A DNA stretch of 64,000 nt, taken from positions 1 through 64,000 of IMG/VR virus record IMGVR_UViG_2923098224_000002; one strand, 5' to 3'. Source of the DNA: a virus. Lineage: Duplodnaviria > Caudoviricetes. A model generated the notes under the pieces. It saw only the letters and a program-made list of their open reading frames with translations, did no database searches and was not told where the DNA came from. Each line of letters begins with the position of its first letter. Position 1 is the first letter of the stretch. Shown here in pieces: positions 10,348 through 34,073 of the stretch. The translations under genes and the position numbers were made by a program.

Positions 10348-11574
10348 TTGGAATACATCACAAAAATGGTGCATGATTTTATTGAAGACCACGATGACAT
10401 AAAAAAGACGGATGTTATGGAGTTTGTTGGAATGAGTGAAAGTGCATATAGGGATTTTTTCAAGAAAGGCAAAATAAGTTTCAAGAAACTTATTAAATTC
10501 GCTCAACTGATTTCAAAAGAAACAGGAAAGGGAAGTCAGGAAATTTTGTCAGAATGGTGTTTGCATATCACCCGGACAGAAACAATAAAAAATTCATTTG
10601 AATACTCCGCAATTACTACAAACGCTCCTCTTTTAAAAAGATTATTACTACTTCATCAAAATACTGACGGAGTTCTTAAACAGACGGTGGAAGTGTACCG
10701 TATTGTTTATAACTATATGGTAGGAACGTTGAGTGGTTTTAAACTGAAGGATGCAATAGGAAGACTCCACAACATAACAAGTAAACCACTTTTGATTTTA
10801 ATGAATATCATTCGACAGTATAACAACTATTTTGAAGGTGACATACAAAAAATAATAAATGAAGTCTCGGAAATCCAGAAGGATATAACAAACCTAGGGC
10901 CGCGAGAAACCTTTTATAAAGAATGCTTAACGTTCAGGGTCTGTGAATTATTGGCGCCTATTAGTTTGCAACTTAATGATGTGAAATCTGCGCGGGATTT
11001 TGCTGAATCTATTATTAATGCAAATATATCCGCGAAAAAGAAATCTGATGCATATTATGTTATAGGAATGTCGTACTTACCGGATGATAAAAATGTCTGT
11101 TTGTATAACCTCCGGAAAAGTTACGAGTTAATGCGTGAAGTAGGCGATTTACAGTACATCCAAGAGGCAAAGTTCAATTTAGATTTCGCTAAAGTCTTTC
11201 ATGGCGTTGAGCTTGATGAAGACTCTAACTTCAGACTGAGAGCATATCAGAAAGCGAGAAATGGGAAGATTTCTTTAGCGAAGTTACATACGATATTAGA
11301 GAGGGGCGATAAAGACAATTTTATAATATTTTTCGAAAACACAGCGGAAAAGTCAATAGATGTAATGTATAATTGCCTAGAGTCTTTTTTCTGTCAAGAA
11401 AACTTCTTCTTTGCTAGGTTAGTAGCGAAAGAGCTTGAGAAAGCAGGAGCTGACTCACGAGCGCTTAGACCATTCCTAAAATTCAAAAAATTAATTAAAG
11501 GAGAGGTTTTAATTGAAAAAGATATTATTAGCCATTTTAATCGTAGTGATGGCGGCAGCAGGATTTGCATTTAA
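10348..11574 (+). CDS. aimR: AimR-like arbitrium peptide receptor (HTH + TPR, RRNPP family)
   Basis: N-terminal HTH, 'ETIKNSFEYS' motif, TPR-like helices (KKSDAYYVIGMSYL); directly followed by a small secreted peptide gene. Confidence 0.8.
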   Translation: MEYITKMVHDFIEDHDDIKKTDVMEFVGMSESAYRDFFKKGKISFKKLIKFAQLISKETGKGSQEILSEWCLHITRTETIKNSFEYSAITTNAPLLKRLLLLHQNTDGVLKQTVEVYRIVYNYMVGTLSGFKLKDAIGRLHNITSKPLLILMNIIRQYNNYFEGDIQKIINEVSEIQKDITNLGPRETFYKECLTFRVCELLAPISLQLNDVKSARDFAESIINANISAKKKSDAYYVIGMSYLPDDKNVCLYNLRKSYELMREVGDLQYIQEAKFNLDFAKVFHGVELDEDSNFRLRAYQKARNGKISLAKLHTILERGDKDNFIIFFENTAEKSIDVMYNCLESFFCQENFFFARLVAKELEKAGADSRALRPFLKFKKLIKGEVLIEKDIISHFNRSDGGSRICI

Positions 11575-11644
11575 ATATGATACACAGAATCAAGCTAGTA
11601 CCGAAGGAGGATATAAGGTAGCCGACATTCGGGTTGGTGCTTAA
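11513..11644 (+). CDS. aimP: AimP-like pro-peptide MKKILLAILIVVMAAAGFAFKYDTQNQASTEGGYKVADIRVGA (predicted mature DIRVGA)
   Basis: TTG start with RBS AAAGGAGAGG, Sec signal peptide, 43 aa, C-terminal ...VGA; absent from the ORF track. Confidence 0.85.
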   Translation: MKKILLAILIVVMAAAGFAFKYDTQNQASTEGGYKVADIRVGA

Positions 11645-11883: not shown

Positions 11884-12492
11884 TTGAGAAAAGAACAATT
11901 GAATAGCGAAGTGTTAAAGTACCAAGAAAGTAGAAGTGAATCTGCTTTCAGGGTGGTTTACGATTACTTCATAACAAGAAATGACCGAAAGTTCAAAACA
12001 ATCGGTAAATCAATTGGTGCAGATTATTATGAGGCAAGAGCGATTTATGAAGACACCTTACTTTCTTGTATTGAGTCATACAACGGAGAGCATGATTTTG
12101 AAAGATTATTTAATGCAAGTGTTCCGTTGCAGAGACGCTATTTTTTAAGGGGGAGGGTAAACAGAAACAAAAGAGAAATCATACCAAAAGGAGACCATAA
12201 GAATGCGGCAACATTCGATGTCCCCTGTACGGTAACCCCGGAAGAGCTTTTGACAACAAAAAAAGAAGTTGACCAGCGGCAACTGATCGACTTCCTATTA
12301 GGTACTACATCTGACGCAACGACAATACAAATCGCCGAAGCATATCTTTCGAGTGAAAAGCCAACTCCGACGGCAATCGGAAAAAAGTTGGGTCTACATC
12401 ACTCAACAGTCATACGCAAACTCGAAAAGCTCTCCCGCAATTTCGATACCAAACAGTTCGGCGATTACCGAGACTACTTGATCGCGCAATAA
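11884..12492 (+). CDS. Sigma-70-like RNA polymerase sigma factor / HTH regulator
   Basis: Region-2-like N-terminus (KYQESRSESAFRVVY...YEDTLLSCIESYN); C-terminal HTH TAIGKKLGLHHSTVIRKL. Confidence 0.65.
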   Translation: MRKEQLNSEVLKYQESRSESAFRVVYDYFITRNDRKFKTIGKSIGADYYEARAIYEDTLLSCIESYNGEHDFERLFNASVPLQRRYFLRGRVNRNKREIIPKGDHKNAATFDVPCTVTPEELLTTKKEVDQRQLIDFLLGTTSDATTIQIAEAYLSSEKPTPTAIGKKLGLHHSTVIRKLEKLSRNFDTKQFGDYRDYLIAQ

Positions 12493-32046: not shown

Positions 32047-32133
32047 TACCCGCATTTTACCGCGTTAGTTGTCTATACGTTATGAGGGCGCCCGTTCAGC
32101 GCTCTTTTATTTTTGCGAAAAGGAGACGGTTTA

Positions 32134-32934
32134 ATGAAGAGATTACGAGTTATTAATACGGAGACAGGCGAAGACTGGTCGGAAATGTACACGCTGCGGC
32201 ACCGCAACCAAGACGCAGCCTTTCGTCAGCAGCAAGAAAAAACAGCCGATCGGCGCGATTTCTCAAACGCCAATATGTCTAATATTCACGAAGTCTATGA
32301 CGCTCTTACGACGGCACAGTGTGGCTATCTGATGCTGCTTCAGTGCTACGTCGACTACAACGGTGTTCTAATAAAATCCAGCCGTAATAAAACGCCGATG
32401 ACCACCGCGGACATGATGGACGTTTTGCAGCTCAGTAAAAAACGGATGACCTTTTACGACTTCCTTTCCGCCTGTACCGAGCACGACATCATCCGGGAAG
32501 AGAACGGCCGCTACAGTGTAAATGACCGCTACCACTTCAAAGGTAATTTCGGTAGTCAGCAAGTCGTTAAGCTATACAGCGCGAAGATCAAACGTGTGTA
32601 CAGCGAAGTGAAGGCGACTGACATCGGTCTGATCTATCGTATGCTGCCGTTCATTCATTACGAAACAAACGCTCTGTGCGCAAATCCTTTCGAAAAGAAT
32701 CCGAAGCGCATACGTTGGTTTAACAAAAAAGAGCTTGCGGCGGCGATCGGTGTTACCTCGGATACGCTCGGCCGGCGCCTGAAGCAGATGAAATTCGACG
32801 GCGAATACGTTGTTGCGCGAATTAAAGTCGGAAGCGAGCCGGAGCGCTATACGTTTAATCCTAACGTATTCTATCGACAATCCAAGACGCCGGACAAAAC
32901 GCTGATTGCGCTGTTTAACGTTAAGAAGGTATAA
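32134..32934 (+). CDS. RepL-like / double winged-helix DNA-binding protein
   Basis: INTETGE N-terminus; two wHTH-like units ending YSVNDRYHFKG and YTFNPNVFYR. Confidence 0.55.
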   Translation: MKRLRVINTETGEDWSEMYTLRHRNQDAAFRQQQEKTADRRDFSNANMSNIHEVYDALTTAQCGYLMLLQCYVDYNGVLIKSSRNKTPMTTADMMDVLQLSKKRMTFYDFLSACTEHDIIREENGRYSVNDRYHFKGNFGSQQVVKLYSAKIKRVYSEVKATDIGLIYRMLPFIHYETNALCANPFEKNPKRIRWFNKKELAAAIGVTSDTLGRRLKQMKFDGEYVVARIKVGSEPERYTFNPNVFYRQSKTPDKTLIALFNVKKV

Positions 32935-32935
32935 T
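32906..32935 (+). promoter_or_regulatory. Candidate SigA promoter for the arbitrium-array mini-gene
   Basis: TTGCGC-18 nt-TATAAT; RBS GGAGGTG at 32947-32953. Confidence 0.5.
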
Positions 32936-32959
32936 TTTACTATACCGGAGGTGAGGCGA

Positions 32960-33043
32960 ATGGGAATGCCACGAGGAGCTAATCCGTTAGAGAGTGCGAT
33001 TAGAGGCGCAGGTCCAGCGGAAAGCGCATCACGCGGAGCATAA
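32960..33043 (+). CDS. 27-aa poly-arbitrium peptide MGMPRGANPLESAIRGAGPAESASRGA (tandem GMPRGA, SAIRGA, SASRGA)
   Basis: Translated directly from the sequence; strong RBS, downstream terminator; three RGA-ending hexapeptides at a 10-aa period. Confidence 0.88.
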   Translation: MGMPRGANPLESAIRGAGPAESASRGA

Positions 33044-33047
33044 AACG

Positions 33048-33079
33048 AAAAAGGACGCCTTATGCGGGCGTCTTTTCTT
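33048..33079. terminator. Possibly bidirectional terminator after the mini-gene
   Basis: aaaaag-gacgcct-tatgc-gggcgtc-ttttctt. Confidence 0.75.
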
Positions 33080-33221
33080 CGTCATCTTCCGTTTGTAATT
33101 CAAGAACTTCGATCTGCGATTTTAAGATAGCTATGTCTCGGCTGTTTAGGTTCGTAGGTAATTCAAAGCGCGCAATCTGCCCGTTTGTAAGCGCAATGCG
33201 AGCGTATTGTTTTTCGTCCAT
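33060..33221 (-). CDS. Small hypothetical protein MDEKQYARIALTNGQ... (53 aa)
   Basis: RBS AAGGAG on the minus strand, open frame. Confidence 0.55.
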   Translation of the reverse strand: MDEKQYARIALTNGQIARFELPTNLNSRDIAILKSQIEVLELQTEDDEEKTPA

Positions 33222-33260
33222 TCGTATAGCTCCTTCGGTGTTTATGTCTTAAATATATCA

Positions 33261-34073
33261 TCAGCTCTTCCACGAATCAAACGAAGGTATCCGCAGCAGT
33301 CCTTTGCGCGTCTTAAATCGATGCTTCACACGGCATTTTATCGGCTCTATATTCACGTATTTATCCGTTTCTCCTACGTCTTTCCGCTCCGAATGAAATC
33401 TCCGCCGTTCAGCGTGCGGCATAAACTCCATCAGGCCCGCATAAGCACCGTCCTCATACGCTAAAACAAGCGCATTATCCTCTTTCCGATAGCCCGTAAT
33501 CCAAACGTCAGTATATTCGTAATTAACGATCTTCAGCCAACGATCTGACCGCTTATTTTCCGCGTAGGACGAGTTAGCGCGCTTCATAACGACTCCTTCA
33601 ATGCCGGAGCTTTTCGCTAATTCGAAAACAGCGCGGCCATTACCTGTAACGCTATCGACAATCTTAACGTTTGGATGATCGAGGGCAAGGCCGCTTAATA
33701 ATTCCTTCCGCTCATATAACGGTTTCGACGTAACCGATACGCCGTCGAGACGCAATATATCAAACACGCAGAATACTATCGGATGATAGCTTTTTTGCGA
33801 TTGAAACCGCTCCATCATAGCTTCGAAGTCTCCGGCGCCTGTCGGTCCGGGCACGATAAGCTCGCCATCCAAAATGGTACCGTCCGGAATTTGTATCGTG
33901 TGGAGTTCGGGGAATTTAGCGGTGACTTCGTTGTTGTGGCGCGTGTAGAGGCGCATGCGGCCGCCATCTTTGGACGCGAGCAGGCGGATACCGTCGAATT
34001 TGATTTCCGTAATGTAATCGTCAGAGTCGAACGGGTCTTTTGCGGACTCTAATAGCATTGGCGAAATAAACAA
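33261..34073 (-). CDS. ATP-dependent DNA ligase (SPbeta LigB-like)
   Basis: EIKFDGIR, LDGEL, FDIL, EGVVMK, WLKI motifs. Confidence 0.92.
   Translation of the reverse strand: MFISPMLLESAKDPFDSDDYITEIKFDGIRLLASKDGGRMRLYTRHNNEVTAKFPELHTIQIPDGTILDGELIVPGPTGAGDFEAMMERFQSQKSYHPIVFCVFDILRLDGVSVTSKPLYERKELLSGLALDHPNVKIVDSVTGNGRAVFELAKSSGIEGVVMKRANSSYAENKRSDRWLKIVNYEYTDVWITGYRKEDNALVLAYEDGAYAGLMEFMPHAERRRFHSERKDVGETDKYVNIEPIKCRVKHRFKTRKGLLRIPSFDSWKS

Follow-up and report, generated by a model that had tools for sequence, protein, structure and literature searches.

A leaderless, receptorless phage mini-gene encoding arbitrium hexapeptides of other phages: a probable tool for manipulating competitors

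Positions 1–64,000 of the IMG/VR provirus record IMGVR_UViG_2923098224_000002 (95.5 kb in total), hereafter the window, contain a 27-codon open reading frame (ORF) that strings together three hexapeptides, GMPRGA, SAIRGA and SASRGA, each known as the arbitrium signal of another phage. Why should a prophage encode the signals of others? Arbitrium has long been treated as private talk among phage kin, and in 2025–2026 similar native signals were shown to leak between phages. Here we analyse this mini-gene and its relatives. The mini-gene probably serves to manipulate competing phages. Judging from the sequences, it is moderately likely to be a dedicated forgery of rival phages' arbitrium signals, which would be released from the cell, cut by host proteases, imported by neighbouring cells and bound by the AimR receptors of the rivals, turning these towards lysogeny. 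If a variant acting inside the producing cell is counted in, forgery in one form or the other is very likely.

Three foreign signals in one short frame

The mini-gene is composed as follows.

32960–33043, plus strand: mini-gene, 27 codons and TAA, M-GMPRGA-NPLE-SAIRGA-GPAE-SASRGA-stop
32963–32980, plus strand: unit 1, GMPRGA, the SPbeta signal, immediately after the start methionine
32981–32992, plus strand: spacer 1, NPLE; [NS][PSL]L[EQ] in all family members having this spacer
32993–33010, plus strand: unit 2, SAIRGA, the phi3T signal
33011–33022, plus strand: spacer 2, GPAE; GPAE or GPTE where a family member has a third spaced unit
33023–33040, plus strand: unit 3, SASRGA, the signal of BUCT082-type SPbeta-group phages, with a free C-terminus
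32947–32954, plus strand: very strong ribosome-binding site GGAGGTGA, 5 bases upstream of the ATG
33045–33082, either strand: bidirectional intrinsic terminator (hairpin −19.9 kcal/mol, z −4.7, none of 200 shuffles as good)

The codons are ATG GGA ATG CCA CGA GGA GCT AAT CCG TTA GAG AGT GCG ATT AGA GGC GCA GGT CCA GCG GAA AGC GCA TCA CGC GGA GCA TAA. The three RGA ends lie at an exact period of ten residues and are encoded differently each time (CGA GGA GCT, AGA GGC GCA and CGC GGA GCA), so the frame reads as in the preliminary description of this locus. The terminator hairpin is preceded by an A-run and followed by a T-run, hence termination is possible in both directions.

Each of the three units is identical to the C-terminal hexapeptide of an annotated AimP. 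The AimP of SPbeta (yopL) ends in YEVA-GMPRGA, that of phi3T in TVA-SAIRGA and that of BUCT082 in TVA-SASRGA. This bears out the earlier assignment of the first two units to SPbeta and phi3T and of the third to the SPbeta group. Further native ends are KVA-SPSRGA in SPbetaL3 and QVA-GIVRGA in Goe11 and SPbetaL4. When the window is translated in all six frames, each of these hexapeptides is found in the mini-gene only, the chance expectation being 0.002–0.03 per window for each. The DNA pattern of three RGA ends at 21-nt intervals followed by a stop codon (RGA-N21-RGA-N21-RGA-stop) occurred in none of 100 shuffles. The 27-residue product has no hydrophobic stretch, that is, no Sec-type N-terminal signal peptide; neither this product nor a 39-residue array of the same family has a Pfam match, and Rfam yields no match for 32700–33300 at E up to 1.

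The units follow the signals in circulation. As a sample of arbitrium clade 2 we took 49 IMG/VR loci encoding an SPbeta-type AimR and read their AimP ends: GMPRGA in 15, SASRGA in 10, SAIRGA in 8, SIIRGA in 6, SPSRGA in 5 and GFGRGA in 5. The array in the window thus copies exactly the signals of 33 of the 49 sampled systems, and the arrays of the family overall contain exact copies of five of the six signal types. There are 17 distinct array units, eight of which are natural signals: GMPRGA, SAIRGA, SIIRGA, SASRGA, SPSRGA, GIVRGA, GFTVGA and ELNPGA. Seven of the eight were confirmed as native AimP ends in sequences; the eighth, GFTVGA, is a clade-2 signal according to PMC13220667 (here and below, the papers cited by preprint or PMC number, and the 2020 review, are represented by the parts consulted). 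ELNPGA is the AimP end of a locus (L127) from the carrier's own AimR clade rather than of the SPbeta type. Hence the earlier idea that the targets are SPbeta-like holds for the SPbeta types that are copied, and is too narrow for those arrays that also contain a signal of the ELNPGA type.

The array family and selection on the peptide

The array family comprises 20 IMG/VR provirus records, 19 of them found beyond the window's own by scanning IMG/VR with DNA patterns. The pattern of three RGA ends at a ten-codon period followed by a stop codon gave 23 stretches, of which two were true and 21 were rejected as repeats or pentapeptide-repeat genes. The pattern of one unit with its spacer was true in 8 of 8 cases, and that of the ribosome-binding site with the start in 13 of 23. 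A terminator-anchored pattern (ORF end and terminator, independent of the ribosome-binding site) was true in 19 of 19 cases, of which 13 had been found earlier and six were new. One protein-database search contributed further variants (P0002–P0016). In all there are 20 distinct products, with two to four units in the relatives of the window array. Examples are:

GMPRGA-SPLE-SIIRGA-GPAE-SASRGA
GMPRGA-SPLE-GIVRGA
GMPRGA-NPLE-SAIRGA-SPSRGA
GMPRGA-SPLE-SIIRGA-GPVRGA
G-ELNPGA-GPQLY-GMPRGA-SPLE-SIIRGA-GPAE-SASRGA (four units)
G-EIKPGA-NPLE-SIIRGA-GPAE-SASRGA
GFTVGA-KELPKPKY-GFPRGA

Across the family the hexapeptide units swap, and the ribosome-binding site, the spacers and the terminator are kept. 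The preliminary description had proposed to look for homologues whose hexapeptides are exchanged among known AimP types while the spacers persist, and such homologues do exist.

Three other collections yielded no family members. The 18-nt string of the ribosome-binding site and start had none among 50 stretches from GTDB species genomes, and the terminator-anchored pattern had none among two matches in JGI metagenome contigs. Against 50,697 cultured phage records, tblastn with the 27-mer found nothing at E up to 10, and blastn retrieved the flanking genes only; as the query is short and the low-complexity filter was on, absence from cultured phages is weakly supported by this search.

The arrays are maintained as coding sequences. 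The same ribosome-binding site is present in 20 of 20 carrier records, including the six recovered by the pattern that does not use it, and an open frame ending in G[AV]-stop right before the terminator is likewise found in 20 of 20. Length differences among the arrays are 3, 12, 30 and 36 nt, all in frame. GMPRGA has five synonymous DNA forms across the family, and SASRGA has five as well, with Ser encoded by TCA, TCT or AGT and Arg by CGC, AGA or AGG. The numbers of variable sites at the first, second and third codon positions are 13, 12 and 25. The sequence comparison thus indicates that selection acts on the array gene at the level of the peptide.

At the native aimP 3' ends the codons differ again, and the array DNA has no similarity to these ends beyond the coding requirement; hence the array units are not recent DNA copies of aimP. 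This bears on the explanation that the array has no function, being untranslated or a neutral leftover of recombination between aimP 3' ends. The ORF is indeed very short and unannotated in all records seen. However, its intactness in all 20 records, the constant strong ribosome-binding site, the restriction of indels to in-frame ones, the synonymous switches across the Ser and Arg codon families, the lack of similarity to aimP and the lack of an Rfam match all speak against this explanation, which we consider hardly credible.

The mode of change is seen in close pairs. The window and the near-identical locus L014 differ at nine positions within 24 nt around unit 2; five of the differences are silent, and the others convert NPLE-SAIRGA to SPLE-SIIRGA. 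This looks like a swapped patch. With one further change, loss of 12 nt in frame from GPAE-SASRGA could give rise to SPSRGA or to GPVRGA.

The mini-gene is inserted at the end of an operon, at a point marked by the following features.

32113–32934, plus strand: upstream DNA-binding gene, 273 aa, closing a sigma-factor operon; its stop codon (32932–32934) lies within TATAAT
32906–32911, plus strand: TTGCGC, a weak −35-like hexamer inside the upstream gene, 18 nt before the −10 box, matching the consensus at 3 of 6 positions
32930–32935, plus strand: TATAAT, a perfect −10 box at the 5' edge of the shared module, overlapping the stop codon of the upstream gene

The upstream gene belongs to phrog_9501 (E 1.9e-122) and has about 80% nucleotide identity to genes annotated as "DNA binding protein" or "AsnC family protein" in the Bacillus phages 268TH007 and phi18-2. 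Both are B. subtilis phages of roughly 65 kb, and the identity of about 80% with the window phage refers to this flanking gene. The insert of about 108 nt lies between the stop codon of the DNA-binding gene and the terminator of that gene. In 268TH007 and phi18-2, which lack the insert, the stop codon is followed directly by the same terminator. Among 13 further loci with a homologue of the DNA-binding gene and readable downstream sequence, the mini-gene is present in one (G036), and nine run straight into the terminator. By this distribution, the array gene is an accessory insertion mostly missing from relatives. At one locus (L166, record G021) another short ORF, preceded by a ribosome-binding site of its own, comes directly after the homologue of the DNA-binding gene; its product is acidic and 39 aa long. 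This position thus looks like a hot spot of small accessory genes.

The module occurs in two genomic contexts: after the 273-aa gene (context a) and after a 147-aa gene encoding a DnaD-like or helix-turn-helix protein (context b). Homology between the two begins at GGTATAAT. In context b the −10 box reads TGGTATAAT, that is, an extended −10, and TTGCGC is missing, so the −35-like hexamer lies outside the shared module. No candidate receptor gene accompanies the module in either context. In one record (G007, with loci L031 and L053; 83 kb, 65% complete) the module resides within an SPbeta/phi3T-like phage. There it arrived together with three upstream genes (154, 59 and 147 aa), and the recombination joint left a chimeric ORF. 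The aimR gene of this phage is disrupted, with a transposase or insertion-sequence fragment upstream and two stop codons, and its aimP, encoding SAIRGA, is intact.

The preliminary description regarded the mini-gene as a stand-alone gene with a SigA promoter. The arrangement TTGCGC-18-TATAAT is present as described, but the −35 element fits the consensus at only half of its positions. Since the mini-gene lies between the last gene of an operon and the terminator of that operon, transcription by read-through is as possible as transcription from a promoter of its own.

Own receptors, possible targets and routes of action

The carrier of the window array has an arbitrium system of its own, 21.4 kb upstream of the mini-gene.

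10348–11574, plus strand: own AimR (Pfam PF22871, E 5.9e-26), the reference for "self"
11513–11644, plus strand: own AimP, 43 aa, with a signal peptide, ending in KVADIRVGA (NCBIfam AimP_fam, E 1.5e-5, 25.1 bits, cut-off 35)

The aimP gene begins 62 nt inside the 3' end of aimR (11513–11574) in another frame, an overlap common to most relatives in this AimR clade. Where SPbeta-type phages have aimX, the window has an ORF of 202 aa (11884–12492, plus strand) that has no PHROG match.

The own signal, DIRVGA, differs from all units of the array, and the distance to aimR is as earlier described. The same separation holds for other carriers, whose own AimPs end in DIRVGA (five records), INAIGG (two), ANQLGG (three), EIKVGG, ELRPGG and, in G007, SAIRGA (one each). 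In none of the 13 carriers with a known own AimP does the own hexapeptide occur in the own array, a figure that is no formal test of self-avoidance, as own-type signals such as DIRVGA, INAIGG and NQLGG are found in no array whatsoever. Five carriers are fragments without AimR. In two others (G048 and G049, loci L182 and L183; about 68 kb, rated 100% complete) no AimR was found by Pfam or by the clade profile; their mini-gene encodes GFTVGA-KELPKPKY-GFPRGA. One of these two records shares its name prefix with G036, a carrier that has AimR and an identical mini-gene. The lack of the own signal in the arrays and the existence of complete carriers without AimR imply that the array gene serves no receptor in cis.

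These observations bear on the possibility that the array is a second own signal of the carrier, used among kin and read by a receptor unlike AimR. The two complete carriers lacking AimR mean that any self-use would need another receptor, and leaderless RRNPP signals exist (going by the title of a reference in PMC10075063). On the other hand, the units reproduce signals of other phages exactly and differ among near-identical carriers, which is unlike a private channel, and no candidate receptor gene moves with the module. Signalling among kin is thus very improbable.

The route that we favour for the forged signals would be as follows. The mini-gene would be transcribed by read-through from the operon of the sigma-factor and DNA-binding genes, or from the TATAAT at its 5' edge. 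Methionine aminopeptidase would strip the start methionine before Gly, exposing the N-terminus of GMPRGA, and the leaderless peptide would leave the cell at phage lysis. B. subtilis secretes Mpr, a Glu-specific endopeptidase. In tandem Phr propeptides of phages, the internal pheromones are freed, the cut at their C-termini included, by the extracellular proteases WprA and Bpr (PLoS Biol 2024, PMC11343458). By analogy, extracellular Bacillus proteases might cleave behind every GA and behind the last residue of a spacer, which is Glu, Gln or Tyr. Neighbouring cells would then import the hexapeptides, and binding to SPbeta-group AimR would switch aimX off, raise lysogeny and lower prophage induction. 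The carrier would gain because rivals spare shared hosts, including the carrier cells, and its own DIRVGA-type AimR would not be addressed. Through point mutations, in-frame deletions and the recombination of patches, the units would evolve and shift among the commonest circulating signals.

What the free hexapeptides do is established: whether cognate or near-cognate, they bind AimR, reduce aimX expression, promote lysogeny and curb induction. Non-cognate SIIRGA, SASRGA, SPSRGA and GVVRGA act on the AimR of phi3T, raising lysogeny and lowering induction, and their emission increases the fitness of the emitter (bioRxiv 10.1101/2025.10.13.681967); cross-recognition of clade-2 peptides has also been shown (Cell 2026, PMC13220667).

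An alternative is that the same forgery takes place within the producing cell: the product, synthesized in the lysogen or soon after induction, would be trimmed by cytoplasmic peptidases and bind the AimR of an SPbeta-like phage that superinfects or shares the cell. The rival would be driven into lysogeny or held in it, with neither export nor re-import. The absence of a signal peptide and the cytoplasmic location of AimR agree with this, as does the Met-Gly start, which lets a cytoplasmic enzyme expose the N-terminus of GMPRGA or GFTVGA, the C-terminus of the last unit being free already. A perfect −10 box within the mobile module, extended in context b, is what would be expected of a moron expressed from the prophage, and it has been argued that a prophage suffers less mortality itself when it steers a superinfecting phage towards lysogeny (bioRxiv 10.1101/2025.10.13.681967). 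Against it, no cytoplasmic route to exact internal hexapeptides is known, and the conserved Glu, Gln or Tyr closing the spacers, together with the Pro in second place within them, resemble protease sites, for which the published precedent is extracellular. Moreover, forced co-lysogeny predicts that co-resident phages have signals matched by the array, and in a very small sample, described below, three of three are unmatched. We regard an intracellular route as rather unlikely.

The signal might also be aimed at the host, with the hexapeptides altering colony development or sporulation of Bacillus. SAIRGA is reported to change B. subtilis colony development and to raise sporulation in the absence of AimR (bioRxiv 10.64898/2026.08.23.746533). 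However, a host target leaves unexplained the presence of several phage signals per array, the tracking of the commonest rival signals and the omission of the own signal, and we find it highly unlikely.

Several observations weigh against forgery by release and processing as set out above. Nine of the 17 distinct units match no known natural signal, although seven of the nine are just one residue off such a signal; units with no matched native AimP end include SIVRGA, GPVRGA, GFPRGA and EIKPGA. Native mature peptides are preceded by [VT]A in most native AimPs read and in all of clade 2, whereas the array units are preceded by E, Q, Y, M or the GA of a prior unit. As the spacers are unlike native AimP cleavage sites, native-like processing cannot be assumed. 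In arrays starting with MGE an extra Gly would stay after removal of the methionine. The consensus promoter scan called no promoter at TTGCGC-18-TATAAT, owing to the poor fit of the −35 hexamer. The RNA libraries give a weak hint of transcription only: a 346-nt RNA-library contig of depth about 3, identical to the window, covers 32846–33191, and two RNA-library contigs of 2.5–3.9 kb (depth 56 and 91), from a relative with three extra bases after 32965, cover the whole region, but such contigs are blind to strand, ends and level, and carry-over of DNA is possible. To these points should be added the caveat on self-avoidance given above and the signals of co-resident elements.

In three of three cases the signal of a co-resident arbitrium system is absent from the array. 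The element adjoining the carrier in the window's record (68133–69011 of G000, outside the window) uses GFGRGA; an SPbeta-like record sharing its name prefix with the carrier L045 uses SIIRGA; and the SPbeta-like carrier G007 itself encodes SAIRGA. This speaks against the earlier suggestion that co-resident phages are among the targets: with only three cases, incoming or neighbouring rivals fit better than residents.

The first of these elements has a second arbitrium locus (L110, G000:C1:66633–70511), about 4 kb past the end of the window. Its SPbeta-type AimR-like ORF is only 320 aa long (Pfam E 2.8e-72), the N-terminal part being seemingly missing. The AimP is secreted and ends in TFHVAGFGRGA, and an Xre-like repressor gene and an excisionase-like gene lie alongside. 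Elements of about 35 kb with GFGRGA that resemble this one account for five of the 49 sampled loci.

Comparison with known systems

Gene callers skip ORFs of 27 codons. RRNPP_detector demands an adjacent receptor and a signal peptide (PMC10075063). With these length limits and detection criteria, array genes are invisible to current searches. In the literature on arbitrium hexapeptides and on leaderless, orphan, decoy or mimic AimP, judged mostly from titles and the openings of abstracts, no such gene is described. Nor does one appear under the terms decoy, orphan or mimic, or in the Discussions, in the parts consulted of the two papers on crosstalk (bioRxiv 10.1101/2025.10.13.681967 and PMC13220667), and a 2020 review, as far as consulted, only speculates on exploitation of arbitrium by orphan receptors or cheaters.

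A broader proposal is that the modular, receptorless and leaderless cassette for signal forgery represents a new class of phage-against-phage weapon, which lists the dormancy signals of circulating rivals from at least two arbitrium clades, is updated by swapping of units and moves between unrelated phages, SPbeta-like ones included. To this we give as much credence as doubt. If true, it would be the first evidence that phages have evolved dedicated signal forgery. Forgeries would act as a selective force for the rapid diversification and horizontal exchange of aimR–aimP pairs, which would partly be an escape from them, and the array content of a prophage would record which rivals its carrier has fought. 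A handle of about 110 nt, open to genetic testing, would also become available for steering rival temperate phages to dormancy in Bacillus communities.

The closest known genes are those of AimP itself (SPbeta yopL, phi3T, Goe11; NCBIfam NF033802). The array units are letter for letter their mature C-terminal hexapeptides, and the last unit of the array ends the protein, as SASRGA ends the AimP of BUCT082 and of ten of the 49 IMG/VR loci. There the likeness stops. The array product is leaderless, whereas all native AimPs read have a basic N-terminus followed by a hydrophobic segment. AimP directly follows or overlaps its cognate aimR, and the array gene does not adjoin aimR. The array has no [VT]A cleavage context, and it combines several distinct signals, all of them non-cognate for the carrier. 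The 27-aa and 39-aa arrays have no match to NF033802 at E up to 10; the AimP of the neighbouring element scores 81.5 bits (cut-off 35). Of the sequence features that define AimP, the array product thus shares the hexapeptides alone.

Natural crosstalk in the SPbeta group (bioRxiv 10.1101/2025.10.13.681967; PMC13220667) resembles the proposed action in the non-cognate binding to a rival's AimR, the early lysogeny, the reduced induction and the benefit to the emitter. In that case, however, the emitter signals with the functional AimP of its own system, and the effect arises incidentally from similarity. The array gene, by contrast, is separate, has no receptor and encodes several foreign signals, each copied exactly.

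Precursors in which spacers lie between multiple pheromone units are known, namely the tandem Phr propeptides of phages phi3T and phi105 (PMC11343458). Unlike the array, these are secreted with a signal peptide and have an adjacent Rap receptor, which all their units address. Within arbitrium, the native AimP of locus L116 (IMGVR_UViG_2919414237_000001) has two units in one precursor, SDKVGG-FILF-SDKVGG at its end; in contrast to the array, the units are identical and the phage's own, the protein has a signal peptide and the gene overlaps the end of aimR.

Finally, the array gene is similar to prophage morons in being a small insert present or absent at the same site among relatives, bordered by a −10 box and followed by a terminator. 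Unlike them, it relies on the terminator that belongs to the upstream gene, has a putative promoter and encodes a chain of signals rather than a protein domain.

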